Source: Verrucomicrobiota bacterium (GTDB lineage: Bacteria; Verrucomicrobiota; Verrucomicrobiia; Chthoniobacterales; JAFAMB01). From it: a stretch of DNA of 64,000 bases. The stretch is taken from the NCBI GenBank assembly GCA_019247695.1, contig JAFBAP010000159.1:13265-77264 (forward strand), read 5' to 3'. Made by a program: the position numbers and the translations under genes. Positions within the stretch are counted from its first letter, which is position 1; the number at the start of each line of letters is the position of its first letter. Below the pieces are notes generated by a model. It saw only the letters and a program-made list of their open reading frames with translations, was not told the origin of the DNA and did no database searches. Positions 2,014 through 62,850 of the stretch are shown one piece after another.

Positions 2014-3387
2014 TTGAGCTTTATACAGACGATGGAGACTGCAGCGCCCCGTCCAGGCTTGATTCTCGCCGGTTTGCAAAGCGGCAACGGCAAGACTGCG
2101 GTCATGTGCATGCTGCTGGCGGCCTTGGTACGGCGCGGCGTACCGGTTCAACCGTTCAAAGCCGGGCCGGATTTCATCGACCCGGCTTACCACGCCCGTT
2201 ATGCCGGCCGGCCTTCGCGCAACCTTGATGCCTGGCTGATGGGGCCCGAGCGCCTCAAGCAGGAGGCAGCCACGCACGTATCCGGGCGGGTGGGAATCGT
2301 TGAAGGCGTGATGGGCCTCTTCGACGGCAGCGAGGCAACTTCAGACGCAGGCAGCACGATGGAAATCGCGCGCCTGCTGGGCTGGCCGGTTGTCCTCATC
2401 GTACCCTGCGCCAAAGCCGGGCGATCCCTCGCGGCTGCGTTGCGCGGCTTTGCCGCTGAAGCCGGAGCCGGCTGGATTTGCGGGGTCATCCTCAATCAAG
2501 TCAGCGGTGAATCGCACGCGGAGTACTTGCGGGAAGCAATTGCGCCGTTACGGCTTCCCGTCCTCGGGGTAGTGCCGCGCGACGCCACCTTGCAATGGCC
2601 GGAGCGCCACCTTGGGCTGCAGGCAAACCAGGAACTGGCGTTGCCCGGATCGGACGAACTCGCCGGGATGGCGGAGCGGTTCCTCGATCTCCCGGCCTTG
2701 ATGCAGATGCTCGCGCCCGCCGGCCGCGTCCGGGAAGGCGACACCGTCCCAGGGGTATCTTTCCGGCACTGGCGCCTGGCCGTGGCACGCGATGAGGCGT
2801 TCCACTTTTATTATGAATCCAATCTCGACTACCTGCGACAACGAGGCGCGGAACTAGTCAGTTTCTCACCGTTGCATGATCAAACCTTACCCGGGCAGAT
2901 TGACGCAGTCATGCTCGGCGGCGGTTTTCCCGAATGCTTTGCGGATCGGCTTTCGGCGAACGCGGCACTCCGGACGGAACTGCGTGAGGCGTTAAGCGCA
3001 GGGCTGGCCTGCTACGCCGAGTGCGGCGGGCTGATGTTTCTGTCGGAAAACCTCATCGCATCCGACGGGCAACGCTTTCCGATGGTCGGAGCACTCCCGG
3101 GTCAGGTCGAGATGACGGACCGGTTGCAACATTTCGGGTACTGTCGCACCTCAAATCTCGCCGGCGTACGTAAGGTTGCCTTCCATGGGCACGAATTCCA
3201 TCATTCCCGTTGGCGTGCGGAATCCGAACGCGCGAACCTTTGGGAGGTTACCCGAAAGCGCAACGCACAATGCCGATGGGAAGGATTTTCTTCCGGCCGC
3301 CTGCACGCCTCTTACGTTCACCTTTATTTCCCGGGAAGCGAACCGGTTCTGGAGCGCCTGTTCCCTTTCGGAAGGGAGGGGGTATGA
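2014..3387 (+). CDS. cbiA: cobyrinic acid a,c-diamide synthase CbiA/CobB
   Basis: 'GNGKTAVMCMLLAAL' and 'FKAGPDFIDPAYH', with a C-terminal amidotransferase domain carrying 'YAECGGLMFL'. The start is TTG at 2014 or ATG at 2032. Confidence 0.85.
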   Translation: MSFIQTMETAAPRPGLILAGLQSGNGKTAVMCMLLAALVRRGVPVQPFKAGPDFIDPAYHARYAGRPSRNLDAWLMGPERLKQEAATHVSGRVGIVEGVMGLFDGSEATSDAGSTMEIARLLGWPVVLIVPCAKAGRSLAAALRGFAAEAGAGWICGVILNQVSGESHAEYLREAIAPLRLPVLGVVPRDATLQWPERHLGLQANQELALPGSDELAGMAERFLDLPALMQMLAPAGRVREGDTVPGVSFRHWRLAVARDEAFHFYYESNLDYLRQRGAELVSFSPLHDQTLPGQIDAVMLGGGFPECFADRLSANAALRTELREALSAGLACYAECGGLMFLSENLIASDGQRFPMVGALPGQVEMTDRLQHFGYCRTSNLAGVRKVAFHGHEFHHSRWRAESERANLWEVTRKRNAQCRWEGFSSGRLHASYVHLYFPGSEPVLERLFPFGREGV

Positions 3388-3832
3388 GGGACGGGTGGCG
3401 GGTGGCGTTCCGAGTTCGGGGTTCGGTCGCACAGCGGGCACAACGTAAGAGTTCACACGGCGAACACGGCGGGCCACGGCGAACACGGCGGGAAGAGGAA
3501 AGAGTTCGGAGTTCGGAGTTCGGGGCTCGGCGTTCGGAGCGGCAGCATGGGGGCCGGTTGCCGGTGTCAAGCTCCGGTTTCGTGGATTTTTTCTGCGTTC
3601 TTCTGCGTGTTCTGCGGATCATTTCGTTTTCCCGCCGGGTGAGCGTGCGCCTCGGGGGAGATCGGACCCGGTTCTACGACGCCTCCGAACCCCGAACTCC
3701 GAACTCCGAACCCCGAACTCTCTCCCCCTCTTCCCGCCGTGTTCGCCGTGGCCCGCCGTGTTCGCCGTGTGAACTCAGTCGTTGTGCCCGCCGTGTGACC
3801 GAACCCCGAACTCCACCCGCCGCCCCTTCTAA
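3388..3832. repeat. modular palindromic intergenic element (word-repeat family A) with ~150-nt inverted arms
   Basis: Left arm ~3393-3542 and right arm ~3682-3826 are reverse complements. The ~140-nt loop carries 'ttttttctgcgttcttctgcgtgttctgcgg' (3587-3617). The same modules recur at 39660-39950, 43165-43612 and 62484-62850. Confidence 0.9.
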
Positions 3833-3835
3833 CTC

Positions 3836-4516
3836 ATGATCACCTGTATCGGTGCCGGTCCCGGCAATCTCTCCTTCCTTACCCAGCGCGGGCGCGAACT
3901 CATCGAATCGGCCGAGGTCGTCGCCGGATTTGCGAGCGTGGTGGAACTGGTCAGGCCATTGGTCTGCTCTCAAACCGAGGTGATCACGATGGGCTACAAG
4001 GATCAGGTCATCAAACTCGCGGAAGTCGCCGAACGGCACCACGCCGGGAAACGCTGCGTGGCCGTGTTCATGGGAGACATCCACTTTTCCGGCTTCCAGT
4101 TCCTTGAACGGATCGAACGCGCGTGCGGGCATCCGGTCGAGACGGTGCCGGGCATCAGTTCCGCCCAGGTGCTTGCCTCGCGCGCCCGGGTCTGCTTCGA
4201 CGAAACCACCTTTCTAACCTTTCATCGCCGGGGCGACATCGTCCCGTTCCAACGCCACCTGGTCCATGCCCTCAAGGATGACCGTAACGCGATCGTCATT
4301 CCGCGTCCCTGGGATTTCATGCCCAAAGAGATCGCCGCATTTCTGCTTGCCGGCGGGATTGCGGGCGAGCACCCGGTGGAAGTCTGGGAACGGCTCACGC
4401 AGGCTGAAGCCGGCTGGCGCGGTGAACTCAAAGATTGCACCCGCGACTTCAGCGACATGAGCATCATGCTCATCCGCACCCTTTGCCCCATGCCCAGCCA
4501 GGTCCAGCCCGTATGA
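3836..4516 (+). CDS. cbiE: cobalt-precorrin-7 (C5)-methyltransferase CbiE (CobL N-domain type)
   Basis: Tetrapyrrole methylase fold with '[15 protein letters not shown]', '[12 protein letters not shown]' and 'VPGISSAQ'. The stop overlaps the next ATG (ATGA at 4513-4516). Confidence 0.75.
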
Positions 4517-6087: not shown

Positions 6088-7217
6088 AGGTGATGAACGC
6101 GCTCGATCTGTCCATCCTTGCCGAAAACGGGTTACGCCGCGGGTTCACCACCGGGTCCTGCGCGACGGCGGCGGTGAAAGCGGCGCTGTTGAAATTACTC
6201 TGCGGTGAGCTTACCGGGCGGGTAAACGTCACTTTGCCGGACGGCGAATTTTATCTGACGATTCCGATTGAAAGCGTGTACGACGAACCGGACGGCTGGG
6301 TGCGGGCAACCGTGATCAAGGACGCAGGCGACGATCCGGACCAGACCCATCGGGCCAGGATTTTTGCCCGTGTTCGATCCAATTCCAGCGGCCGGGTCAT
6401 CTTTCGGCGTGGCGAAGGCGTTGGGATCGTGACCCAGCCGGGCCTGGCGGTGCCGGTAGGCGAACCGGCTATCAATCCGGCCCCCCGGAAGATGATTTTG
6501 CGGGCGGTCCAGGAAGTGCTGGCCGAAGGCGATAGCATTGGCCCGTCAGGTTACGACGTTGAGATCGGTTGTGAAAATGGAGCCGAAATCGCCCGCCGCA
6601 CGTTTAACCCGCGTCTCGGGATCGAGGGCGGCATCTCGATCCTCGGCACCACCGGGGTCGTCGAGCCGAAATCAATGGCGGCCTTCAAAGCGTCGATCGA
6701 GACCTATATCCGCGTGGCGCTCGGGGATAACCCGCCCGAAATCGTGCTTGCGCCCGGAAACATCGGACAACGCTTCGCCCGCGCCACGCTTGATGCGCCG
6801 CTTAAGCGGGTCGTGCAGATGTCGAACTTCGTCGGGTTCGCCCTGGACTGCGTCGAGCGCACGCTCCTGGAAAACGGGCAACGGCTCCCCCGTCTGTGGA
6901 TCGTCGGGCACCCGGGCAAGCTCGCGAAGGTTCTTGACGGTGTTTGGGATACGCACTCGCAGCGGAGCGAGAGCGCGGTAAGGCCGGTTCGCCGGATCGC
7001 GGGGGCGTGCGGGTTCACCGCCGAAGAGTGCGCGCGTTTTCAGGCCTCAAGAACGGTGGAGGGAATCATCGAATCCCTGGCCGGTGACGAGCGGGCGCCC
7101 GCTTTCTGGCGCGAGGTTGAGACCCGGATCGCCGCCGCCATAGGCCCGAAGCTGTCCACGGTGGACCGCGTCTGCGTGCGGATTTTTACCCTGGACGGGA
7201 AGGAACTCGGAGGCTGA
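6084..7217 (+). CDS. cbiD: cobalt-precorrin-5B (C1)-methyltransferase CbiD
   Basis: ATGA overlap with the previous gene. 'LRRGFTTGSCATAAVKAA', 'VIKDAGDDPDQTH', 'GISILGTTGVVEP'. Confidence 0.85.
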   Translation: MKVMNALDLSILAENGLRRGFTTGSCATAAVKAALLKLLCGELTGRVNVTLPDGEFYLTIPIESVYDEPDGWVRATVIKDAGDDPDQTHRARIFARVRSNSSGRVIFRRGEGVGIVTQPGLAVPVGEPAINPAPRKMILRAVQEVLAEGDSIGPSGYDVEIGCENGAEIARRTFNPRLGIEGGISILGTTGVVEPKSMAAFKASIETYIRVALGDNPPEIVLAPGNIGQRFARATLDAPLKRVVQMSNFVGFALDCVERTLLENGQRLPRLWIVGHPGKLAKVLDGVWDTHSQRSESAVRPVRRIAGACGFTAEECARFQASRTVEGIIESLAGDERAPAFWREVETRIAAAIGPKLSTVDRVCVRIFTLDGKELGG

Positions 7218-9559: not shown

Positions 9560-9739
9560 CCGCATGAAGGTAAATCCCGCCCCGCAATCCCTCAGTTCAG
9601 GAGTTGACGCTACCCGCGCGCGTGGTTCGGAGACCGTCTTATGCCATTTAAACCGTTATTTCGGCAACATATCGGCTCAGGGGGCGCCGGCGTCGGATGA
9701 TGCTCCGCACCCTGGTGAATCGGTCTTAGACCCAACGGG

Positions 9740-10300
9740 CCGGCAGAACCTAGCCCAGGGTTCCACCCTGGGAACCGCCCCTCATCCCGGTCGAGGCCTG
9801 AAGGGCCGGCAGAAGGCGTTTGCTACCTTTCTACCGCCCTTTCAGGGCTCAACGGCGTGGAGGATCCTTTTCCAGGGTAACCCCCCCTGCAATTTAGTTA
9901 AGGGCGGCAGGCCGGGCGTGGCCTTCGTCCCGGAGGGACGGCTGAGGTTAGGCAGGTACTTTAGTGCCTGTACCTGTGCGGGCGTTCCCCAGCGGTTGCG
10001 TCCCCTCGGGACGCCTGAAGCGGCGCGCCGGGCCAGGCGGGCATCAAAGGTGGGGAGACCTTCGGGTTTTTGGCGCCGAGGGTCGCGCCGGGTTTGGCCG
10101 GCCGCTTGGGAGTCGGAATCCTCCCGGGCAGCGTTTCAGGCGTCCCGACGGGACGCGATCCCTCTTAAATGCCCCCTCCAGGGACTGAAGTCCCTGGCTA
10201 CGATCAAGGGTCCCTGCGGGACGAAAGCGCCCCCATCCGCCGGCCTTGTATCCTTAACTAAATGGCAGTGGGGTTTACCCTGGGCTAAGTTCCCACGCCC
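9740..10300. repeat. nested imperfect palindrome made of REP-like hairpin units (GTCCC-N3-GGGAC, CCCAGGG-N5-CCCTGGG)
   Basis: Inverted pairs 9872-9939 / 10210-10283 and 9998-10022 / 10132-10156 share one symmetry centre near 10075. Four GTCCCnnnGGGAC hairpins are present. Neither this unit nor this pattern was seen elsewhere in the window. Confidence 0.85.
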
Positions 10301-10363
10301 CTTTGGGGCTAATATCCAGCATAAAAGTATTGTTGAGGCCCAAGCCAGGAAGGCGGGCGCCCG

Positions 10364-12028
10364 ATGAGTGCGGAAAATCACTCGAATTCCGGGCTTCACT
10401 CCGGAAATCCCGACGGCGCCCACGGCAAACTTTATCTCGTTTCCGTCGGTCCCGGTTTTCGCGAGTTGATTCCGCCGCTGGCCGAAGCGGCCTTGCGGAG
10501 CAGTGACGCCATCGTCGGGTACGACTTGTACCTGCGCTGGATCGGCGACTGGACGGCAGGCAAAGAAGTCCATACCCTGCCGCTCACGAAAGAAAAGGAA
10601 CGTGCCGCGCGTGCCATCGAAATGGCGCGAGCCGGCCGTTGCGTCAGCCTTGTGTCGAGCGGCGACGTCGGAATCTACGGCATGGCGGCGCTGGCCCTCG
10701 AGTTAATGGAGGAATCCGACGTTTTCGAGGTCGCGGTTGTGCCCGGCATCTCCGCGGCGAACAGTTGCGCATCCCTGCTCGGGTCGCCGCTGTCGCACGA
10801 TTACGCCACGCTCTCCCTTTCAGACCTGCTGTGTCCTTGGGAATGGATCGAGCAGCGCGCCCGGCAACTCGCGCGGGCGGACCTGGTCGTCGCGCTTTAC
10901 AATGTGCAGAGCCGCCAGCGCCGCGACGGCATTTACCGGGTACTGCGGCTGTTCAGGGAGCACAAGGCGCCCGGCACCTGGTGCGGCGTGGTTCGCAACG
11001 CTTACCGCGAAGATCAACAAATTTCGATCTGCACGCTGGAAGAACTCGCCGGACGCGCGTTCGACATGCTGACCACGATCATCGTCGGCAACCGTTTCAC
11101 CCGGCGCAAACGGCAGTTCCTGTACACGCCGCGCGGTTACCAGGCGTGGTCCGAAACCACAGCCGAACCCCCTGCCGCGTTCCCTCGAGGAAGCGTCTGG
11201 GTTTTCTCGGGCACAAGCGACGGCAACCAGCTTGCAAACGCCCTGGTCCGGGCCGGCTACCGCGTGGTCGTGTCGGTGGCATCCGGCTACGGGCGCGAAA
11301 CCGCAGCCGGCGCGGTGCCCGGAGCTGTGGTGCGATCCGGGCCGGTGGGGCCGGAAGTGCGCCGGCGCGAGTTGGTCGAGTCGGCGGCGGGGTCGGTAGT
11401 GGACGCCACCCACCCGTTTGCGGTCCGGATTTCGCAACAACTTATGGCGCTGTGCGAAGACACCGGAATTCCGTACCTGCGGTACGAGCGGCCACCCGCG
11501 CCGAGACCGGCAACTGCGCATTATTGCCGGTCAATGGACGAGGCCGCCCGAGTGGCGGCTCGCCTGGGACAGCGGGTCTTCCTTGCGGTCGGCGTTAAAG
11601 AGTTGGCTGCTTTCGTGGAAGCCCGGAGCGATCGGGACTGGTTCGTGCGCGTCACGCCGGACGCTGCTTCGATCGATCGGGCGGTCAGCCTCGGCGTGCC
11701 GCGGGCGCGGATCTGCGCCATGCAGGGCCCCTTCTCCCGCGCATTCAACGAGGCGCTCTGGGCCGGCTGGCAGATCGATTGCGTGGTTACCAAAGATTCC
11801 GGCGAGGCCGGCGGCTTCAACGCCAAAGCCGAAGCCGCCGCCGTGCTGAAGATCCCGCTGGTGGTCGTCGAGCGGCCCACGCTGCGGTACCCGTTCGTCG
11901 CGCACGATTTTACCGGTATCCTCAAAAGGCTGGACGACCTCGCCTCGGACCAAGCGGCAGGCCTCAGTGCACCGCCTCAAGCCCCGGCCCGCCTTCATCC
12001 CCTTCCACCTTCACTCCCGTCATCATGA
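10364..12028 (+). CDS. cbiH-cbiJ: fusion protein: precorrin-3B C17-methyltransferase CbiH/CobJ plus precorrin-6x reductase CbiJ/CobK
   Basis: The N-terminal half has 'LYLVSVGPGFRELIP', 'VSLVSSGDVGIYGMA' and 'VPGISAANS'. The C-terminal half has 'VWVFSGTSDGNQLA', 'VVDATHPFAVRISQ' and 'VVTKDSGEAGG'. Confidence 0.8.
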   Translation: MSAENHSNSGLHSGNPDGAHGKLYLVSVGPGFRELIPPLAEAALRSSDAIVGYDLYLRWIGDWTAGKEVHTLPLTKEKERAARAIEMARAGRCVSLVSSGDVGIYGMAALALELMEESDVFEVAVVPGISAANSCASLLGSPLSHDYATLSLSDLLCPWEWIEQRARQLARADLVVALYNVQSRQRRDGIYRVLRLFREHKAPGTWCGVVRNAYREDQQISICTLEELAGRAFDMLTTIIVGNRFTRRKRQFLYTPRGYQAWSETTAEPPAAFPRGSVWVFSGTSDGNQLANALVRAGYRVVVSVASGYGRETAAGAVPGAVVRSGPVGPEVRRRELVESAAGSVVDATHPFAVRISQQLMALCEDTGIPYLRYERPPAPRPATAHYCRSMDEAARVAARLGQRVFLAVGVKELAAFVEARSDRDWFVRVTPDAASIDRAVSLGVPRARICAMQGPFSRAFNEALWAGWQIDCVVTKDSGEAGGFNAKAEAAAVLKIPLVVVERPTLRYPFVAHDFTGILKRLDDLASDQAAGLSAPPQAPARLHPLPPSLPSS

Positions 12029-20918: not shown

Positions 20919-21407
20919 ATGCTGTTCGGGTTATTCTTTCTAGCCATGTCGCTCAACACGGATTCGCCGCCGCCGTCTCCGTCAGAGCCCCCGGCGCTGA
21001 ATATCACCCACGCGCAAGAGGCACAACAATCGGATGCACTGCAAATCGCTTCTTTGCTCGCCGGGCAGTTTGCCGCCTGGAATGCCAAAGACATCGATGG
21101 TTATATGCAGGTGTTTTGGCGTTCGCCGCTCCTGGTCTACGTCACCGAAGGGTCGGTCTGGACAGGTTGGGACCAGGTGAAAGCGACCGTCGAGCGCCAG
21201 TATCCGGAAAAGAACAATATGGGGCACGCCGTCCTGGAACGCCTTCAAACAAACATCGTCTCGCCTGAAACGGCAACCACGATTGAGTGGTGGACGGTCT
21301 ATTTTCCAGCGGCGAAGGTTCACGGATTCAGCACTTCGACTTGGCGCAAGTTTCCCGAGGGCTGGCGCGTAATCGAAACCCACACCAGCACCTTGGAAGT
21401 CCCTTAG
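20919..21407 (+). CDS. SnoaL-like / DUF4440 (NTF2-fold) protein with a hydrophobic N-terminus
   Basis: 'FAAWNAKDIDGYMQVFW' and 'STWRKFPEGWRVIETH' are typical of NTF2-like DUF4440 proteins. The N-terminus 'MLFGLFFLAMSL' is signal-like. Confidence 0.6.
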   Translation: MLFGLFFLAMSLNTDSPPPSPSEPPALNITHAQEAQQSDALQIASLLAGQFAAWNAKDIDGYMQVFWRSPLLVYVTEGSVWTGWDQVKATVERQYPEKNNMGHAVLERLQTNIVSPETATTIEWWTVYFPAAKVHGFSTSTWRKFPEGWRVIETHTSTLEVP

Positions 21408-21477
21408 GCGCAACCAACCGTTGCGCCATTGAACTCATACAGAGGACGCAGCCGAAGCGAGCATCGTCGGCCCGTGC

Positions 21478-21741
21478 TCAGGCCAGGGTGGCGGTCGCCT
21501 TTCGCGGCAATGGCACCGCCCAGGCCAGCGTGGCGGTCGCCTTCCGCGGCAATGGCACCGCCCAGGCCAGCGTGGCGGTCGCCTTTCGCGGCAATGGCAC
21601 CGCCCAGGCCAGCGTGGTTGACTCTACGCGCGGGTGCCATGCTCCTGCCTCAGCTCCCGGTTTGGAGGATGCCGTGAATGGCGCCAAGCTGGGGTGGATG
21701 GCGGAAACCGCAACGATAAGAATGAGAATGGTCTTTTTCAT
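21478..21741 (-). CDS. possible small secreted protein with three 14-aa tandem repeats (TLAWAVPLPRKATA)
   Basis: The ATG at 21741 is preceded by 'aagaggggga' (SD-like). The N-terminus 'MKKTILILIVAVSAIHPSLA' looks like a signal peptide. The repeat period is 42 bp (14 codons). There are competing ORFs on the + strand, so coding status is uncertain. Confidence 0.35.
   Translation of the reverse strand: MKKTILILIVAVSAIHPSLAPFTASSKPGAEAGAWHPRVESTTLAWAVPLPRKATATLAWAVPLPRKATATLAWAVPLPRKATATLA
21479..21617. repeat. 42-bp tandem direct repeat, 3.3 copies
   Basis: The units at 21479-21520, 21521-21562 and 21563-21604 differ by 1-2 nt ('caggccagcgtggcggtcgcctttcgcggcaatggcaccgcc'). A partial fourth unit runs to 21617. 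Confidence 0.95.
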
Positions 21742-22160
21742 TCCCCCTCTTATCGTGCATTCCCGTGAGGCGAATATAGCAGAAAGTAGCGAGCATCTTA
21801 GAAAATATTACAATGATGGAAAGATGGCGTTAAAATCTCCTGACTTGCGCTTTGTAAGTGTTTTAAATTCTTGCGTTAAATTATACTGTTTTTGGCGAAT
21901 CTGAGAGTGCCCATTTCAAAAAGGCCGGTACGCCCGGCTTGCCTCACGCTGGGGGGCGGGAAAGCGCCTGAGCGGCGGCACATACCTCGACTTACGATGC
22001 AAATGCAATCTAGTGGATATAGATATTATCGATGATTTGATCTCCATGGCTTATGATCTTTAGTTACAATAAATTTAAGGTATAGCGCCTTTTGAGACCC
22101 TTCCACGCACCTGACGGGGTTCGCCCGCCGCTGGTTGCGCACCGGCGCCCAGGCAGCTGA

Positions 22161-22967: not shown

Positions 22968-23008
22968 TTCCGGCCGTCCTTTATGGGATGGCACGCGGCG
23001 TAGCCCTT

Positions 23009-23053
23009 CTTCATTTGTGGCATTTTTCCGCTTGTGGCATTTGTGGCATTCTT
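23009..23053. repeat. solo TTGTGGCAT word module (family A component)
   Basis: 'cttcatttgtggcatttttccgcttgtggcatttgtggcattct' is identical to 43377-43421. It lies between the aroG-like stop and the TPR gene start. Confidence 0.9.
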
Positions 23054-23055
23054 CT

Positions 23056-24069
23056 TCAGAGGGAACGGCCTACCGCCTCGGCGACGCGCCGGATCCGGGT
23101 CAGCAGGTCCTCGAATTCATGCGGCCGCAGCGATTGTTCGCCGTCACTCTTGGCGCGTTCGGGTTCATGATGCACCTCAAGCATCAGGGCGTCCGCACCG
23201 GCTGCCACCGCGGCCAGCGCCATGGCCGGGACAAATTCGCGTACGCCAACGCCGTGCGTGGGATCGACCACCACCGGCAGGTGCGTCTCGGCCTTCAGCA
23301 CCGGCACGGCGTTCAGGTCGAGGGTGTTGCGGGTCATCGTTTCAAAAGTGCGGATCCCGCGTTCGCAGAGCAGAACGTTGAAATTGCCTTCGCTCAGAAT
23401 GTACTCCGCGCTCATCAGGAGATCCTTGATGCTCGCAGCCATTCCGCGCTTCAACATCACGGGGAGATTCGTACGGCCGACCTCGCGCAGCAGGGAAAAG
23501 TTCTGCATGTTGCGCGCACCGATCTGGAGGCAGTCGGCGTAAGCGGCCACCAACTCCAGATCTTTGGTGTCCATCACCTCGGTGATGATCGGCATGCCGG
23601 TGAGTTCACGCGCCTCGTGCAGGAACTGCAGACCGACCTTGCCGAGCCCTTGAAAACTGTACGGCGAGGTTCTGGGTTTGAAAGCGCCGCCGCGCAGGAC
23701 CTTCGCCCCGGCTTTCGCCACGCTTCGAGCGATCAAGGTAATCTGCTCGTAGCTTTCCACCGAACACGGCCCGGCCATTATTACCACCTCCGGTGTCCCA
23801 ATCGTCACCGGCCCTACTTTGACGTGGGAGGGCGTACCCCGGAATTCGTAGGAGACCAGTTTGTAGGGTTTCAGCACCGGCATCACCGATTCGACACCAG
23901 GAAAGGCGCCGAGCGGTTTCTCACGGATTTTGTCTTCCGGGCCGATCACCCCGATAACCACCCGGAGCACACCCCGGCTGACTTCGGTTTTGAGGCCCCA
24001 CCGACGGACGGAATCGACGATATGTTCGATCTGTGCCTCGGTTGCGTCCGGACGTGTGATGATAATCAT
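23056..24069 (-). CDS. 3-deoxy-7-phosphoheptulonate (DAHP) synthase, type I-beta with an N-terminal regulatory (ferredoxin-like) domain
   Basis: It aligns from '[18 protein letters not shown]' with the Thermotoga-type DAHPS. 'MAGPCSVES', '[19 protein letters not shown]', '[11 protein letters not shown]', '[10 protein letters not shown]', 'VVVDPTH'. The ORF-track start at 24198 adds an unconserved 43-aa extension. Confidence 0.85.
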
Positions 24070-26867: not shown

Positions 26868-27444
26868 TGGCTATTGAATCAATCTGCAATGCAGTAATCG
26901 GCGGCGGACAGTCAGTCCAAACGACCCAGTCCGCCCGGCGCATCTTTTCTTCCAAAGGCATTTGCGCGTTGATTATTCGCGCGGCCATCTCCAGAGGCAG
27001 GCTACGTCCTGTGGTTAGCCGTTGAATTTGAGACGCCCGGCTGCACGCGGTTACGATGATAGAATCAAAATGTTTTTCGGCTTTGGTCTCGTAAAGCAGC
27101 GGGATTTCCGCCAACAGCAAATCCTGCCCGCACAAGCGATTTAACCAAGCCTCGCGTATTCGGGGGTGCAGAATTCCCTCCAAGCTCTTTCGGGCCGCAA
27201 CGTCTCCGAATACAAGCGCACGCAATTTTTCGCGCACCAGCTTGCGATTGGAGTCAAAAACGGTCTCTCCAAAAGCCGACCTAATCTCCTCTTGTACAAC
27301 GAAATCGGCTTCCGTCAATCTCCGAGCTTCAACATCGGCGCTAAAAGCCGTCACCGGCAACCGCTCGCGAAGGCGCTCAAGGAGGATTTGGCTGACGGTA
27401 CTTTTGCCGGTAGCGATACCGCCCGTGATTCCGATCGCAGCCAT
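26827..27444 (-). CDS. coaE: dephospho-CoA kinase
   Basis: P-loop 'IGITGGIATGKSTV'; length ~200 aa; 'LLAEIPLLYE'. Confidence 0.8.
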   Translation of the reverse strand: MAAIGITGGIATGKSTVSQILLERLRERLPVTAFSADVEARRLTEADFVVQEEIRSAFGETVFDSNRKLVREKLRALVFGDVAARKSLEGILHPRIREAWLNRLCGQDLLLAEIPLLYETKAEKHFDSIIVTACSRASQIQRLTTGRSLPLEMAARIINAQMPLEEKMRRADWVVWTDCPPPITALQIDSIASELNKRYGGAAAS

Positions 27445-27508
27445 GTGGTTCCGGGTCAGGCACCCGGCGCGTGCGTTTAGCGTGCGTTTAGCGTGCGTTT
27501 ACTTACCT

Positions 27509-28468
27509 TTACGAAGCAAGCCTTTCGCGGAAATACTCGATGGTCTGCCGGATGCCGGCGTCGAACTCAACCCGGGGCTCCCAACCCAAGAGCTTGCGGG
27601 CGCGAGTGATGTCGGGTTGGCGCACTTTCGGATCGTCGACCGGCAACGGTTTGTACTCGATCCGGGATTTTGTTCCGGTGATCTCCCGGATTTTTTCGGC
27701 GAATTGCTGAATGGTCATCTCCTGGGGGTTTCCGATGTTTACCGGGCTGTGATAGTCGCTCATCGCGAGCCGGAAGATGCCGTCGATGAGGTCCGATGCG
27801 TAGCAAAAGCTCCGGGTTTGCCCGCCGTCGCCGAACACGGTCAGCGGCTCGCCGTTCAAAGCCTGGCTGATGAAGGCCGGTACCACCCGTCCGTCCCTCA
27901 GGCGCATACGCGGCCCGTACGTATTGAAGATGCGGACAATTTTGGTGTCCACCCCATGGAAGCGATGGTACGCCATCGTCATGGCCTCGGCGAAACGCTT
28001 GGCCTCGTCGTAAACGCCCCGCGGACCGATCGGGTTCACGTTGCCCCAGTAATCCTCATTCTGCGGGTGAACCAGTGGATCGCCATAGCATTCCGAAGTC
28101 GACGCCAACAGGAACGTCGCGCCTTTGTCCTTCGCCAACCCAAGGGTGTTATGCGTGCCGAGCGCCCCAACCTTGAGCGTCGGAATGGGGTGCTCCAGGT
28201 AATCCACCGGGCTGGCCGGCGAAGCGAAGTGGAACACGAAATGCACCGGGCCCGGCACAAAGATAAATTCCGAAACGTTGTGCCGGATAAATTTAAAATC
28301 CGGGTTGCCGGCCAGGTGAGCGATGTTGTCCGGATTGCCCGTGATCAGGTTATCGATCGCGATGACCCGGAAACCTTCCATCAGCAAGCGGTCAGAAAGG
28401 TGAGACCCCAGGAACCCGGCGCCCCCGGTTACGACCGCGGTTTTTTTCGATGATTGCGTTTCAAACAT
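27509..28468 (-). CDS. UDP-glucuronate decarboxylase (UDP-xylose synthase)-like NAD-dependent epimerase/dehydratase
   Basis: '[14 protein letters not shown]', 'STSECYGDP', '[14 protein letters not shown]', '[10 protein letters not shown]', '[11 protein letters not shown]'. Confidence 0.8.
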
Positions 28469-28490
28469 GGTATAAAGGTAAACGCCACAG

Positions 28491-28731
28491 ACTCAGTAAC
28501 GGGTAACGGGTAACGGGTAATGGGTAACGGGTAACGGGTAATGCGTAACGGATAATGGGTGCGGTTCGCCGTTCGCCGTCTACCCTTAAGCTGTGTCCGG
28601 CGGTGCAATCTGTGGATGATTCTTCTTTTCTGCGTGTTCTGCGGCTGATTTCTGCCTTTCTGCGGATCCGCCGCGTGATCGAACCCGCTACCCGCTACCC
28701 GTTACGCGTTACCGGTTACCGGTGACTGAGT
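28491..28731. repeat. palindromic element with GTAACGG heptamer arms (word-repeat family B) and a TTCTGCG core
   Basis: The left arm 'actcagtaacgggtaacgggtaacgggtaatgggtaacgggtaacgggtaatgcgtaacgg' is inverted at 28676-28731 ('cccgctacccgctacccgttacgcgttaccggttaccggtgactgagt'). The core 'cttttctgcgtgttctgcggctgatttctgcctttctgcgg' is shared with family A. Confidence 0.9.
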
Positions 28732-39606: not shown

Positions 39607-39631
39607 AGATAATGCCATCCGGTTTACTGCG

Positions 39632-39660
39632 AGGCGGCCTCACAAGGCCGCCTTTTCTTT
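39632..39660 (+). terminator. rho-independent terminator after rpsR
   Basis: Stem 'aggcggcc' / 'ggccgcct' with loop 'tcacaa', followed by 'tttcttt'. Confidence 0.65.
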
Positions 39661-39950
39661 CGTCACACGGCGGGCACAGCGGGTTTGGCGGGCACGACGT
39701 AAGAGTTCACACGGCGAACACGGCGAGCCACGGCGGGAAGAGGAAAGCCAGCAGGGAGGGCGGGCTGGTCAGGCACGCCGAGAATCTACGCCGTCTTTGC
39801 CGGGAGCCGAATTCGGGGCCGCACGTCGGCTGCCGGGTAACTTTGTCTTCCCGCCGTGTTCGCCGTGGCTCGCCGTGTTCGCCGTGTGAACTCAGTCGTT
39901 GTGCCCGCCGTGTGACCGTGTGAACCACAGTCGTCGTGGCCGCCACACCC
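39660..39950. repeat. modular palindromic intergenic element (family A)
   Basis: Left arm 39663-39746 and right arm 39846-39948. Within the right arm, the segment 'cttcccgccgtgttcgccgtggctcgccgtgttcgccgtgtgaactcagtcgttgtgcccgccgtgtgaccg' differs by 1 nt from 3730-3801. Confidence 0.9.
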
Positions 39951-40147
39951 GCCTTTCCTTTAATCCGTGTTCCGCTTGTGGGATTTATTACGTTTTTACG
40001 TCAAGTGAAAAATCCCTAAACCGCTTGCTCCGAGGTTATTTATGACTAAATTTCTGGTCCCCTGGTTCCGTAAAGGCCGCCACGAGATGGCGACCCGGGC
40101 TCGGGCTAATTTGGCAACCGTGGTTTGTTGGTCGTTTTAATATTTTT

Positions 40148-47629: not shown

Positions 47630-47712
47630 CAACCAGGTAACCGGTCCCGGCGAATCGCCGGTTAACCGTTACCCGTTACCCGTTACGAGGTACCCGTTAC
47701 GGCCGGTTAACC
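47615..47712. repeat. GTAACGG-word palindromic element (family B) between convergent mtgA and atpC
   Basis: 'accggtaacgggtagcaaccaggtaaccggtcccggcgaatcgccggttaaccgttacccgttacccgttacgaggtacccgttacggccggttaacc', with a central hairpin 'ccggcg aat cgccgg'. Confidence 0.85.
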
Positions 47713-56205: not shown

Positions 56206-56919
56206 TTGCAGGTTGTGCCTAGTTTCCGCGTCAAGATCGCCATCGCCGCGATTGTCGCAGCCGGACTAGTGGTTGCGGCTGCCCATTTTCCAGTTATCCC
56301 GGTCCTGAAAGGTTTTTGTGACCACGTGGGCCGAATGGGGGCGGCCGGGGTTGTCTGCTTTGCCTTGCTCCTTGCCGTCGGTTCCGTCTGCATGCTTCCA
56401 GCCAGCCCTTTCATCATCGCCGCTTCGGCCGTGTTTGGGTTCGGACTCGGGCTAACGGCCGGGCTGTCCGGGATTGCGCTCGGGGCGTCGCTCGGTTTTT
56501 TTCTGTCGCGCTGGTTGTTGAGAAAAGATGTTGCCGCTCAACTCCGAAAACACCCCACGTTCGAAAGCATCGACCTCGCGATTGAGCGCGAAGGGTGGAA
56601 GATCATTATCCTCCTCCGGCTCTGCCCGATCCCTTTCGGATTAGCCAATTACCTTTACGGGCTGACGGGGATCCCGTACCAGGCTTACCTGTTAACCACG
56701 CTGGCCGGCGGCCTGCCTTCGACCCTGCTTTTCTGCCACCTCGGCGCCGCCAGCAAGGCCGGGCTCGAGGCGGTTGCCTCCGGTCAGTCCGGCCATCACG
56801 CGGGCCAGATCGTGCTGCTGGGACTCAGCGTGGCCGCCACCGTGGCGGTCATCGTGGTCTTACCCCGGTTTGCGAAGAAAGCCATCGCCAAACACGCCAA
56901 GGTCAGCATCCCCTCCTAG
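56206..56919 (+). CDS. TVP38/TMEM64 (DedA-superfamily, VTT-domain) membrane protein
   Basis: 'LLRLCPIPFGLANYLYGLTGIPYQAYLLTTLAGGLPSTLLF'; multi-TM. The start (TTG at 56206) is uncertain. Confidence 0.7.
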   Translation: MQVVPSFRVKIAIAAIVAAGLVVAAAHFPVIPVLKGFCDHVGRMGAAGVVCFALLLAVGSVCMLPASPFIIAASAVFGFGLGLTAGLSGIALGASLGFFLSRWLLRKDVAAQLRKHPTFESIDLAIEREGWKIIILLRLCPIPFGLANYLYGLTGIPYQAYLLTTLAGGLPSTLLFCHLGAASKAGLEAVASGQSGHHAGQIVLLGLSVAATVAVIVVLPRFAKKAIAKHAKVSIPS

Positions 56920-56922
56920 AAG

Positions 56923-57131
56923 CGGTAACGCGTAACGAGTAACGGGTAACGGGTGGCGGGTCGAGTAAATGCCGCTCAGGGGTGACTTCGACGGCTCGTG
57001 CGCATGGCGTTGATTCCATACCGGCGGTGAAGCAGTTCTTCCTGGGCTGACGCGCGGCGCTCTCCACCGGGTACAACGTCGGCTTGCGGTCTTCCACCCG
57101 CTATTCGTTACGCGTTACCCGTTACCCGCCC
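56923..57131. repeat. family B element: GTAACGG-word inverted arms around a 134-nt unique core
   Basis: The arms 'cggtaacgcgtaacgagtaacgggtaacgggtggcgggt' (56923-56961) and 'cacccgctattcgttacgcgttacccgttacccgcccc' (57096-57131) lie between convergent stops at 56919 and 57148. Confidence 0.85.
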
Positions 57132-57147
57132 CTCTCTTCCATTTTCC

Positions 57148-61700: not shown

Positions 61701-62483
61701 GTGAAACTCCTTTTGACCTCAGATTTTCACTTTCACCGGCCATGGTACGACTGGCTTTTAGATCACGGGCCCCAGTACGACCTCGTGGCCATCGCCGGAG
61801 ATTTGATGGAAATGCATTACCCCGGAGGGGTGGTGCCGCAGCTTATTTACCTTCACGGTTGGGTACGGACGATGCTCAAGCGAGGGGCGGTTCTGGCGGT
61901 CTGCTCCGGTAACCACGACCTGCCTTCGACCGCGCCGATGGTCGTGCCGCACCAGGGTATCGATAAAGAACGCGTCGCGCTCCTCGAGGGGTTTGCGAAG
62001 CATGAACATTGGTTGCAGGCCTTGCGCCGCGATCACCAGATCACCGTCGACCAGGACCATCGCATCATTCGCACCAATTCCGGGGAGAGCCTCATGGTAA
62101 GCTGCGCGCCTTACCGCGCCGACGGCCAGTTTTTGTTCCGTGAACATTTCCCGCCCCCCTGGCTCCTGCTGCACCATGAACCGCCCGGGGGCACGACCCT
62201 GGCAGGACCGAATACGGGCAACCAGGCCCTGGCCGAATTCGTCCGAAAAACACCGCCGAAATACGTTTTAAGCGGCCACGCCCATTTCAGCGAATCGGGC
62301 CATAACGCTTTCCATGAGCGTATCGGCAAGGCGCATTGCTTCAACTGCCGCCAATACCCAACGGCCGGTATCCGCCCCCCGGCGCCCAACGTGATTCTTC
62401 TCGACACCGGCGCCGGCACGGCAACCTGGCGCTTCTACACGCAGGACAGCACCCCGCAGCAGGCCGTCGTGGAATTGGACTGA
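61701..62483 (+). CDS. calcineurin-like metallophosphoesterase
   Basis: 'LLTSDFHF', 'VAIAGDLME', 'CSGNHD', 'VLSGHAHF'; GTG start. Confidence 0.7.
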   Translation: MKLLLTSDFHFHRPWYDWLLDHGPQYDLVAIAGDLMEMHYPGGVVPQLIYLHGWVRTMLKRGAVLAVCSGNHDLPSTAPMVVPHQGIDKERVALLEGFAKHEHWLQALRRDHQITVDQDHRIIRTNSGESLMVSCAPYRADGQFLFREHFPPPWLLLHHEPPGGTTLAGPNTGNQALAEFVRKTPPKYVLSGHAHFSESGHNAFHERIGKAHCFNCRQYPTAGIRPPAPNVILLDTGAGTATWRFYTQDSTPQQAVVELD

Positions 62484-62850
62484 GAAAAGAGGAAACATCC
62501 ACAGATTACACAGATTGACACAGATTACGGTCACACGGTCGCACGGCGGACACAGCGGAGAAGAATCACACGGCGCCACGGCGGAACACGGCGACCACGG
62601 CGGGAAGAGGGGGAAAGAGTTCGGAGTTCGGGGCTCGGGGTTCGGAGCGGCAGAGAATGCCACAAATGAAGAGGCGCCGGGTCTGGTAATCTTTTTTCTG
62701 CGTTCTCTGCGTGTTCTGCGGTTGATTCTGTCTTTCCGCCGTGGTCGCCGTGGTCCGCCGTGTTCGCCGTGTGAACTCTTACGTTGCGCCCGCCGTGTGA
62801 CCGTGTGAACTCTTTCGTCGTGCCCGCCACCCTCTTCATTTGTGGCATTT
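62484..62850. repeat. modular palindromic intergenic element (family A) filling the gap between two convergent stop codons exactly
   Basis: Words CACAGATT x3, CACGGCG arms (62531-62617 vs 62733-62808), 'agaatgccacaaatgaagagg' (62654-62674) inverted at 62831-62852, and the core 'cttttttctgcgttctctgcgtgttctgcgg' (62691-62721). Confidence 0.9.

Follow-up and report, generated by a model that had tools for sequence, protein, structure and literature searches.

The 448-nt spacer between cbiA and cbiE in the 64,000-nt stretch of DNA analyzed here (the window) is very probably a young copy of a high-copy, non-coding and mosaic family of foldback repeats from a Chthoniobacterales-like lineage of Verrucomicrobiota. 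The copy would have landed in an ancestral 4-bp ATGA overlap between the two genes after the split from relatives that retain the overlap. Because the hairpin arrived with the insertion of a young family copy, we consider it a by-product of the architecture of the element and not an evolved cobalamin regulator. The extreme hairpin in this cobalamin operon would then be selfish or neutral repeat DNA instead of a riboregulator, and annotation pipelines and structure scans should therefore not call it a cis-regulatory element.

The genes on both sides of the spacer are well defined by domains and homology, which agree with the cbiA stop at 3387 and the cbiE start at 3836 assigned in a previous reading of the nucleotide letters (the sequence-only reading). 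The C-terminal length of CbiA agrees with that of its relatives, CbiE is 70–72% identical to the CbiE proteins of syntenic relatives, and the flanking genes have their closest annotated relatives in Verrucomicrobiota/Chthoniobacterales. The locus L196 is a second assembly of the same organism (ENA ERZ27313880 k141_508337). Its independent gene calls reproduce the ATGA or short overlaps by which neighboring cbi genes had been described to be joined, and place the start of cbiA at window position 2032 (L196 gene 8197–9552); a cobalamin riboswitch lies about 9.1 kb upstream on the same strand of L196. It is hardly conceivable that the spacer is a chimeric foldback that arose during assembly or amplification. 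Palindromic repeats commonly fragment or mislead assemblies, and numerous metagenome contigs do terminate within copies of the family. However, the 448-nt spacer recurs in L196 and differs there at 4 nucleotides, indicating that the palindrome is not an assembly artefact, and dozens of other complete copies are embedded among intact genes.

The long imperfect palindrome of 3393–3826, identified from the sequence and with a repeat finder, occupies the whole gap between cbiA and cbiE, in accordance with the sequence-only reading. Three pairs of inverted arms detected by the repeat finder, 3400–3498/3727–3825 (99 nt, 90% complementary), 3492–3539/3683–3730 (48 nt, 85%) and 3393–3419/3799–3825 (27 nt, 85%), make up a single continuous foldback, in which approximately 3393–3539 faces 3683–3826 around a loop of about 140 nt. 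The mirrored strings quoted in the same reading are located at 3451–3499 and 3726–3775. The minimum free energy (MFE) fold of 3380–3840, the calculation proposed there, gave -347.3 kcal/mol for the RNA compared with -204.3 +/- 6.7 kcal/mol for dinucleotide shuffles (z = -21.3), a value beyond all 100 shuffles. The reverse strand is nearly as stable (-332.6 kcal/mol, z = -20.5). In the RNA fold, the stem stops 10 nt 5' of the cbiE ATG. Among 80 family copies, the cbi copy (copy A) has the highest stability (-0.76 kcal/mol/nt), and it forms 146 long-range pairs where the median is 73, which fits a recent insertion; RNA folds of other copies contained 75–142 long-range pairs.

Features of the window at the cbiA–cbiE junction and at further repeats
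Feature	Position	Strand	Details
cbiA/cobB-type cobyrinate a,c-diamide synthase	2014..3387	+	Pfam CbiA + GATase_3; stop TGA 3385–3387
Left ATGA	3384..3387	+	ATG overlapping the cbiA stop; ancestral position of the cbiA-stop/cbiE-start overlap
Bridging ORF, 151 codons	3384..3839	+	from the ATG on the cbiA stop to the TGA on the cbiE start; encloses the hairpin
Outer left arm	3393..3433		GGGTGGC x2 and GAGTTCG-type heptamers; pairs with 3793–3826
Core left arm	3434..3501		GGGCACAACGTAAGAGTTCACACGGCG, (AACACGGCGGGC CACGGCG) as a 19-nt unit x2, then GGGAAGAGGAAA
Inner left arm	3502..3539		GAGTTCG heptamer array, 5.4 copies (TRF)
Non-palindromic center/loop	3540..3682	+	GGAGCGGCAGC..GTGTCAAGCTCCGG; TTCTGCG 9-mer array 3591–3616; GGGGGAGATCGGACCCGGTTCTACGAC
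Inner right arm	3683..3720		CCGAAC(C/T) heptamer array, 4.9 copies (TRF)
Core right arm	3721..3792		mirrors 3434–3501; bears the family signature CCGTGTGAACTCNNNCGTYGYGCCCGCC
Outer right arm	3793..3826		mirrors 3393–3433 (repeat finder, RNA fold)
Retained native sequence and right ATGA	3827..3839	+	CTTCTAACTC; cbiE ATG 3836, TGA of the bridging ORF
cbiE-type cobalt-precorrin-7 (C5)-methyltransferase	3836..4516	+	Pfam TP_methylase; homologues so named by their sources
Different composite palindromic repeat	9583..10401	+	inserted after codon 6 of a cbiH/J-type gene
Second family copy	39658..39953		same core arms, different center
Third family copy	43187..43612		extra modules CGCAGAA, CACAGATTA, CATTTGTGG, CCGACAC
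Fourth family copy	62477..62832		between convergent metallophosphoesterase and CrtC-like genes

The arms of the cbi copy are assembled from short modules, namely GAGTTCG (x5), CACGGCGAACACGGCGGGC (x2) and TTCTGCG 9-mers, and TRF reported the tandem heptamers GAGTTCG x5.4, CCGAACC x4.9 and CGGGTGG x2.3. For the heptamer array of the inner left arm, a motif search found 15 matches where 0.01 was expected. The palindrome begins with GGGTGGC and ends with GCCACCC, without a terminal GTAG. Conservation within the family is highest in the core left arm (BLAST depth of about 200–220), whereas the outer left arm is common to few other copies (depth of 1–38 vs more than 200 in the core). The orientation of the loop center varies among copies, with L094 carrying the reverse complement. 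The short native segment behind the palindrome is homologous to the DNA just 5' of cbiE in L203, L197, L198 and L204.

The cbiA–cbiE junction of related genomes shows an insertion polymorphism. The site is empty in L198–L202 (CbiE 85% identical), L205 (80%), L206/L207 (81–82%) and L013, where cbiA and cbiE overlap as ATGA, and cbiA also ends in the ATGA that starts cbiE in L203-type tails; L001 has a spacer of 36 nt. Since the relatives with 80–87% identical CbiE keep the ATGA overlap and lack the element, the spacer must be a recent insertion. This comparison of the cbiA–cbiE spacing lends no support to the proposal of the sequence-only reading that the duplex may split the operon into two expression units. 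The site is filled in L196 from the same organism, and the contigs of L197 (CbiE 92%) and L204 (86%) break within family modules just 5' of cbiE. L198 contains a 54-nt mini-palindrome at the junction, which is read through as a CbiA tail to the ATGA. In L203, from an independent lineage, the cbiA–cbiE site is occupied by another kind of repeat. The gene order differs in L208 (a 76% relative), which was uninformative.

The modules of the cbi copy also build the other three palindromes of the family in the window, all adjoining unrelated housekeeping genes. The second copy follows a terminator-like hairpin and precedes the gene for ribosomal protein S1, and the third between LPG-synthase-like and MqnA-like genes, both on the - strand. 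Related heptamer palindromes occur at 28480–28727, 56918–57144 and 47655–47701, and TRF detected heptamer arrays elsewhere, such as GTAACGG x9.3 and CCGACAC x5.1. Outside the window, a 28-nt signature of the core arm matches at least 115 further loci in one metagenome. The repeats match between the window and the metagenome loci, and the coding DNA does not; no orthologous genes are common to the window and the sampled Ga0213876 loci. The closest match to copy A has 89% identity over 338 nt. An all-versus-all BLAST comparison defined 224 repeat intervals that cover 52 kb of 1.01 Mb, and their lengths range continuously from 40 to 745 nt, indicating that the family is mosaic. Only the part corresponding to 3434–3792 is widely common to the copies, and the outer modules differ from copy to copy. 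Nevertheless, the modules follow a fairly fixed order from outside to inside, with arms of the GGCGGGCACAACGTAAGAGTTCACACGGCG type consisting of tandem 7-nt and 9/19-nt modules. In the sampled loci, a copy is found every 1–3 genes. Where a gene reads into a copy, the copy begins 0–15 nt past the stop codon of that gene, and 38 of 71 copies lie between co-directional genes, 23 between convergent and 10 between divergent ones. The background contains 139 convergent and 137 divergent cases among 708, so that convergent contexts are somewhat overrepresented among the copies and divergent contexts underrepresented. This family fills a large share of the intergenic space in an uncultured soil/freshwater verrucomicrobial lineage, where it breaks metagenome assemblies. 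A literature search with the motif strings found no paper, and the family is apparently undescribed, having no Rfam model, no literature match for its motifs and no plasmid match.

If the operon is transcribed as one unit, its mRNA is able to fold into a duplex of about 146 bp, which would in principle be an RNase III substrate. This part of the sequence-only reading stands, while the operon-splitting function that it attached to the duplex is unsupported. We consider it unlikely that the hairpin acts in RNA as an RNase III site, a terminator/attenuator or a 3' stabilizer and thereby splits the cob/cbi operon in two. The great stability of the sense duplex would suit such a role, and so would the placement of the copies right after stop codons and their enrichment between convergent genes, which resemble REP/BIME 3'-end elements. 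Precedents also exist, as RNase III cleaves Correia/NEMIS hairpins that are transcribed along with genes, and REPs stabilize upstream mRNA (general statements in PMC3733652). However, the stem is not followed by the U-tract that follows the G+C-rich stem of an intrinsic terminator, the sequence from 3827 being CTTCTAACTCATGATC, and the only terminator-like sites are two weak ones within the loop (3581–3618), which is at shuffle level (mean 1.8). The suggested strong terminator or attenuator is thus not borne out. No sigma-70 promoter was found in the element by a consensus scan, and the consensus scans for terminators and promoters gave no excess over shuffles. A known RNA family was ruled out: an Rfam scan of the whole window at gathering thresholds gave no match, and a permissive scan of 3300–3900 at E <= 10 returned only chance miRNA/UTR hairpin matches far below threshold. 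Selection at the RNA level was not detectable across the family in any of three tests. The loop orientation is unbiased with respect to transcription (18:12, p = 0.36), the sense strand is the more stable one in 20 of 32 copies (p = 0.21), and arm complementarity within a copy (0.733) does not exceed that between copies (0.730), suggesting that pairing persists without copy-specific maintenance. Only one two-allele site (TAA/ACT) correlates between the arms (18 of 33 vs 11.1 expected). Together with the close relatives that have the same operon and a junction without the element, the dispersal of the family and its lack of strand bias speak against a stability determinant evolved for dividing the operon. 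A stop-free frame also crosses the hairpin, and this ORF spans the insert from overlap to overlap, which points to neutralizing the hairpin and not using it. Cleavage or pausing is possible as a side effect of the hairpin, and the placement of copies after stop codons and between convergent genes could mean a function at 3' ends beyond mere tolerance. A role at the level of DNA, where the palindromes and heptamer arrays would be sites for nucleoid proteins, gyrase, cruciform formation or recombination, as proposed for BIMEs, is very improbable. The elements are symmetric, alike on both strands and indifferent to the direction of transcription, their short tandem modules suit cooperative protein binding, and they are very densely spaced. 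Nonetheless, copy length and module content are highly variable, and the cbi copy is recent, with relatives doing without it.

As a young repeat copy, the spacer would persist in the operon because its effect is tolerated or neutralized, most plausibly by a frame that stays open. A translational relay is compatible with the insertion of a repeat copy and would add a mechanism to it. Ribosomes ending cbiA at the TGA (3385–3387) would restart at the overlapping ATG (3384), and translation of the 151 codons would melt the hairpin and shield the RNA from Rho and RNases. The ribosomes would stop at the TGA (3837–3839) and restart at the overlapping cbiE ATG (3836). The bridging ORF, which has no protein-family and no NCBIfam match, would then be selected for openness and not for its product. 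It is conceivable, though somewhat doubtful, that cbiE is still expressed in this way. The geometry of copy A, ATGA at both ends, is as expected for a relay, but copy A alone is weak evidence as 15% of shuffles keep the frame open. Three other repeat inserts of the operon lineage are bridged alike. The composite repeat at 9583–10401, flanked by the direct repeat AAATCCCG(C/A)C, is crossed by an ORF at 9564–10367, which runs for 267 codons from the native start at 9564 to an ATGA on a new start at 10364; the other + frames of the insert contain 9 and 13 stops, and one of 5000 shuffles was open. A real gene is ruled out for this 267-aa ORF, which had five matches among 5.8 billion proteins, four of them partial, and belongs to no protein family, with no match in Pfam or NCBIfam. 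In the 490-nt cobS–cobU spacer of L196, a frame without any stop (6 and 6 stops in the others; 81/5000 shuffles open) has ATGs at 2944 and 2947 close behind the cobS stop and ends in ATGA at cobU. In L203, GTGA at the cbiA stop is followed by 143 open codons up to ATGA, while the other frames contain 7 and 9 stops and 57/5000 shuffles are open. Combined by Fisher's method, the four shuffle p-values give 7.6e-6 for these four inserts, which comprise at least two unrelated repeat types and two lineages, but the pattern was noticed post hoc. The 54-nt mini-palindrome of L198, read through as a CbiA tail, is in line with a relay, and so is the fact that the genes of the organism mostly lack Shine–Dalgarno motifs; a stem ending 10 nt before the cbiE ATG would probably hinder de novo initiation there. 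On the other hand, the bridging frame of L204 has a stop 130 nt 5' of the ATGA, and in copy L098 the corresponding sequence frame is open on the antisense strand. Open frames are not a general property of the family, because, among the copies flanked by co-directional genes at the metagenome loci, sense frames are open no more often (4/32) than antisense ones (5/32). It may tentatively be proposed that repeats in this coupled cobalamin operon persist only as product-less translated spacers, each entered at or over the stop of the upstream gene and ending in ATGA on the downstream start, which would relay ribosomes, keep the coupling, unwind the hairpin and avert polarity or RNase attack. If true, the relay would be a simple and general route by which translationally coupled operons absorb insertions without polarity.

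As for its origin, the family may have spread as non-autonomous mobile DNA or, alternatively, by insertion into pre-existing small palindromes. The cbi element shares with MITEs the terminal inverted repeats (arms of 99, 48 and 27 nt) and the small, non-coding, multi-copy and dispersed nature (about 445 nt; four copies in the window and at least 115 metagenome loci). It lacks their defined termini and discrete size, and the variable termini and continuous lengths of 40–745 nt are atypical for a MITE mobilized by a transposase. ATGA is present on both sides of the insert and once at empty sites, but a target-site duplication is not demonstrable because both copies are needed there anyway as stop/start, and they do not abut the palindrome. 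A limited search revealed neither a mobilizing enzyme nor an autonomous partner: the ten ORFs bracketed by copies, including argG, ilvC, a PLP enzyme and a sigma-54 activator, are housekeeping genes or have no Pfam match, without a transposase in these partial genomes, and a phmmer search with an IS200 TnpA query, a weak test, found nothing in 7844 ORFs from 1.07 Mb of partial genomes. A phage or plasmid origin was ruled out, as the 28-nt signature had no match among viral contigs and the element none among plasmids.

The family mixes features of BIMEs, MITEs, heptamer STRRs and foldback transposons. REP units are 20–40 nt long and tagged with GTAG or CGTC (PMC3733652). Like the REP/BIME/REPIN elements of Proteobacteria, the present copies are numerous, extragenic and palindromic, and they combine a few motifs in preferred order as mosaics. 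They likewise tend to follow stop codons closely, seldom separate divergent genes, are presumably transcribed along with the flanking genes and are missing from the orthologous sites of relatives. Unlike REPs, they have arms of 100–150 nt built from 7- and 9/19-nt arrays without terminal GTAG, they come with no RAYT in 1.07 Mb, which is a weak test, and their host is a verrucomicrobium. Correia/NEMIS elements are found in Neisseria, ERIC/IRU in enterobacteria and BOX in pneumococcus. These elements are also non-coding, a few hundred bp long, bounded by terminal inverted repeats (TIRs), dispersed, present in operons and able to form mRNA hairpins, and BOX is modular too, with a varying number of internal units. 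However, their termini are fixed, their sizes discrete and their target duplications defined (TA for Correia), whereas here termini and lengths vary continuously and the TIRs are several-fold longer; the 26-bp TIR, TA duplication and 100–155 bp classes of Correia/NEMIS are not found, and sequence, size and host differ. The tandem heptanucleotide arrays in intergenic DNA resemble STRRs and intergenic heptamer repeats such as TAACTGA, in which mixed heptanucleotide types also occur and orthologous regions of relatives are shorter and repeat-free (PMC4679880). The heptamers here (GAGTTCG, GGGTAAC, GGGTGTC, GGGTGGC) differ from the cyanobacterial consensus, form mirror-image arms around a conserved core and belong to a host of another phylum. 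Foldback (FB) transposons have long inverted arms of short tandem subrepeats with variable arm length and center. The likeness to them is one of architecture only, without evidence of homology, as FB elements are eukaryotic, kilobase-scale and equipped with their own transposase. By analogy, the nearest precedent for the bridging ORFs may be Rickettsia RPEs and intragenic REPs, palindromic repeats that survive in transcription and translation units by in-frame read-through. RPEs join a functional host protein, whereas the spacer ORF here is separate and, if translated, would be entered and left via overlapping stop and start codons.

The spacer between cbiA and cbiE is a single long imperfect palindrome according to both the sequence and a repeat finder, which bears out the giant hairpin that a sequence-only reading had proposed here (arms and flanking ORFs are listed in the table). 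The minimum free energy RNA fold of 3380-3840 reaches -347.3 kcal/mol, versus -204.3 ± 6.7 kcal/mol in dinucleotide shuffles (z = -21.3), and the opposite strand folds almost equally well (-332.6 kcal/mol). The organism is known from metagenome contigs only, with Verrucomicrobiota/Chthoniobacterales as its nearest annotated relatives. A second, independent assembly of this organism (L196; ENA ERZ27313880 k141_508337) has the same 448-nt spacer structure with four differences from the window, and identical gene overlaps along the cluster, in agreement with the overlapping cbi junctions described earlier. Because this assembly independently carries the spacer and the overlaps, the palindrome is real, and an artefact is extremely improbable. 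We consider it very probable that the hairpin arose when a non-coding mosaic foldback repeat recently inserted at an ATGA junction, its structure following as a by-product from the element itself.

Features of the cbiA-cbiE spacer and palindromes or arrays built from other modules (window coordinates)
Feature	Position	Properties	Source or location
CbiA/CobB-type amidase ORF	2014-3387		left flank of spacer
Palindrome arm pair	3400-3498/3727-3825	99 nt, 90% complementary	repeat finder
Palindrome arm pair	3492-3539/3683-3730	48 nt, 85% complementary	repeat finder
Palindrome arm pair	3393-3419/3799-3825	27 nt, 85% complementary	repeat finder
CbiE-type methylase ORF	3836-4516		right flank of spacer
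Palindrome/array from other modules	22990-23057		intergenic
Palindrome/array from other modules	28480-28727		intergenic
Palindrome/array from other modules	47655-47701		intergenic
Palindrome/array from other modules	56918-57144		intergenic

The arms of this repeat copy (copy A) are not unique sequence but concatenated short tandem modules, GGGTGGC (x2), GAGTTCG (x5.4) and the 19-nt unit CACGGCGAACACGGCGGGC (x2) with their mirror images, and its loop holds a TTCTGCG 9-mer array. Two module motif searches of the window returned 15 and 13 matches against 0.01 expected, including sites at 39.7, 43.4 and 62.6 kb, every one again palindromic. The intergenic palindromes listed in the table consist of other modules (GTAACGG x9, GTTACCC x5.7, GGTAACG/CGTTACC and CATTTGTGG x4.4), and some have the TTCTGCG centre in common with the main family. 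Neighbours of the other window copies encode an MqnA-like enzyme, an LPG-synthase-like protein, a metallophosphoesterase, a CrtC-like protein, ribosomal protein S1 and a DksA-type protein. Since these are unrelated to cobalamin, the element is not cobalamin-specific. A terminator-like short hairpin with a T-run (gaggcggcctcacaaggccgccttttctttcg, 39620-39660) immediately precedes the family copy at 39658-39953. The window also contains a 42-nt tandem repeat (CAGGCCAGCGTGGCGGTCGCCTTTCGCGGCAATGGCACCGCC, 3.3 copies, 96% matches, 21479-21617) in or beside ORF 21287-21904, and a perfect 11-nt tandem repeat (GCGTGCGTTTA x3, 27469-27501) near the start of ORF 27242-28453.

The family is large and mosaic. 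The 28-nt core-arm signature CCGTGTGAACTCNNNCGTYGYGCCCGCC occurs in at least 115 stretches of one metagenome, Ga0213876, many of them at contig ends among the matches listed, and had no match in viral contigs. Only the repeats match between the window and these loci, the coding DNA being without a match. The core of copy A (3434-3792) is widely common (BLAST depth ~200), and the outer 40 nt per side are found in few copies. Among the matches listed, an all-vs-all comparison gave 224 repeat intervals covering 52 kb of 1.01 Mb, with continuous lengths of 40-745 nt. A module map drawn from 69 copies revealed an order that recurs from the outer edge inward: outermost AATGCCACAAATG, (GGGTAAC)n, (GGGTGTC)n and (GAGTTCG)n; then GGTCACACGGCGGGCAC..GGCGGGCACAACGTAAGAGTTCACACGGCG, followed by (CACGGCG-type)n, GGGAAGAGG and (GAGTTCG)n; and innermost a centre of type CGCAGAA/CACAGATT or CAAGCTCCGG..TTCTGCG..GGTTCTACGAC. 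Modules are optional and half-elements occur. Copies start 0-15 nt past the stop codon of the gene reading in; 38 of the 71 placed copies lie between co-directional, 23 between convergent and 10 between divergent genes, versus 432, 139 and 137 background pairs, respectively, and the genes with copies on both sides are ordinary housekeeping genes. Copy A is the most stable among 80 copies compared. Within individual copies in the Ga0213876 loci (L081-L195), G:U pairs are numerous on one strand but scarce on the other (for example, 23 vs 5, or 5 vs 27), in a direction unrelated to transcription. Such a bias resembles strand-asymmetric mutation and may be tied to replication.

To read the history of the junction, we collected CbiE homologues and inspected their contigs. 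As the sequence-only reading had proposed, we compared the cbiA-cbiE spacing in relatives: both genes overlap as ATGA, without the element, in L198-L202 (CbiE 85% identity, five samples), L205 (80%), L206/L207 (81-82%) and L013, and the spacer is 36 nt in L001. The C-terminus of the window CbiA is of normal length and finishes in ...GTATGA; therefore, the left ATGA (3384-3387) represents the ancestral overlap of stop and start, with copy A placed between it and a second ATGA (3836). The contigs of L197 (92%) and L204 (86%) break within family modules a short distance before cbiE, and the outer modules differ. At the same junction, L203 (87%) has another kind of palindromic repeat, ~425 nt long (97-521; arms 312-374/445-507) and bounded by a 14-nt inverted repeat (82-95/506-519). 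The L198 junction (6236-6303) has only a 54-nt mini-palindrome with a 16-bp stem (AGAAGGTGTGTGGGAG/CTCCCACACACCTTCT, -33 kcal/mol), directly upstream of the cbiE ATGA, that reads as an 18-codon C-terminal extension of CbiA; L199-L202 are alike. Its left-hand motif GAAGGTGTGTGAG also ends cobS in L196. The final ~10 nt before cbiE (CCCCTTCYAACYC) are common to all members of the 85-100% clade. From these sequences we infer that a small junction palindrome may repeatedly have received and exchanged larger repeats, which would also account for the nested module order of the family. The repeats may be mobilised as non-autonomous elements and/or may insert into loops of older palindromes.

One left-arm block differs between the two assemblies, GTAA in the window (3445-3448) and GACT in L196 (9610-9613), the latter being a perfect complement of the right arm. 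Both alleles also segregate among family members, and at this one two-allele site the left and right arms of a copy co-vary (18/33 vs 11.1 expected). At the sequence level, the difference hints at arm-to-arm conversion or suggests strain variation. L196 also has a cobalamin riboswitch (RF00174, 63.4 bits, 716-930) upstream of cobT, where the cluster begins, ~9.1 kb upstream of the spacer on the same strand, a position consistent with one long cob/cbi transcription unit. A partial family copy (616-721) lies ahead of the riboswitch and immediately follows a TPR/CHAT gene's stop codon.

The sequence-only reading had suggested plausible roles for the hairpin in RNA, as an RNase III site, a strong terminator or attenuator, or a stability determinant splitting the operon. 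As to a terminator or attenuator, no U-tract follows the stem, and the scan gave only two weak terminator-like sites, both within the loop and no more than in shuffles. No Rfam family matched, and no sigma-70-like promoter was found in the element. Of 30 co-directional cases, the asymmetric loop followed the direction of transcription in 18 and ran counter to it in 12 (p = 0.36), sense RNA was stabler than antisense in 20/32 copies (p = 0.21), and arm complementarity within copies did not exceed that across copies (0.733 vs 0.730). These tests lend no support to an evolved terminator, attenuator or processing device. We regard a processing or termination element, possibly as a side effect, as unlikely, and a DNA-level role of the palindromes as less likely still. 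Incidental RNase III cleavage of the hairpin is possible.

Beyond the insertion itself, a relay of ribosomes through the spacer ORF is a possible added mechanism, one that we consider less probable than not. Frame 0 is open over the entire copy A insert, from ATG 3384, overlapping the cbiA stop as ATGA, through 151 codons to TGA 3837-3839, overlapping the cbiE start as ATGA. The same geometry was found at every other large insert examined in the operon lineage. The ~820-nt insert at 9583-10401, a composite of other, unrelated palindromic repeats in the 5' end of a cbiH/J-type gene, is missing from L197 and flanked on both sides by the direct repeat AAATCCCG(C/A)C; the native start 9564 (MKVNPA) opens 267 codons to an ATGA on the new start 10364 (9 and 13 stops in the other frames; 1/5000 shuffles open), and this ORF matched no protein family among 5.8 billion proteins. 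The repeat-filled 490-nt cobS-cobU spacer of L196 (2937-3425), ~3.2 kb upstream of the window start, contains a CCCAGGGTAAACCCTGGGCTAAG-type motif twice, then CCGAACT and CCGGCAC heptamers; from ATG codons 8 nt past the cobS stop, its frame has 0 stops vs 6 and 6 in the others (81/5000 shuffles open) and ends in ATGA on the cobU start. The L196 gene call extends cobU into this repeat. In L203, GTGA at the cbiA stop leads through 143 open codons to ATGA (7 and 9 stops in the other frames; 57/5000 shuffles open). Translation of such spacer ORFs would neutralise the inserts: ribosomes passing through would maintain coupling between genes, open up the hairpin and forestall Rho-dependent polarity. 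The four shuffle p-values combine to 7.6e-6 (Fisher), with the 1-in-3 phase requirement per site uncounted, but the pattern was spotted post hoc. However, the copy A frame is open in 15% of dinucleotide shuffles (open frames in 59 family copies: 5.6%) and is by itself weak evidence for a relay, sense frames are open no more often than antisense frames in family copies that lie elsewhere between co-directional genes (4/32 vs 5/32), and in L204 the bridging frame is interrupted by a stop 130 nt before the ATGA.

In genomic behaviour, the foldback repeats come nearest to BIMEs/REPs and hairpin-forming MITEs (Correia, ERIC, BOX), in fine structure they resemble STRR-type heptamer arrays, and in architecture eukaryotic foldback elements. 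However, they lack the 20-40-nt GTAG-tagged unit of REPs, the fixed termini, discrete size and clear TSD of MITEs and Correia elements, the STRR consensus heptamers, and the signature of an intrinsic terminator. Because the defining features of all these classes are absent, we file the family as a new form of intergenic palindromic repeats. The bridging ORFs have their closest counterpart in the in-frame read-through of RPEs and intragenic REPs, but differ in being separate spacer ORFs that stop/start overlaps connect to their neighbours.
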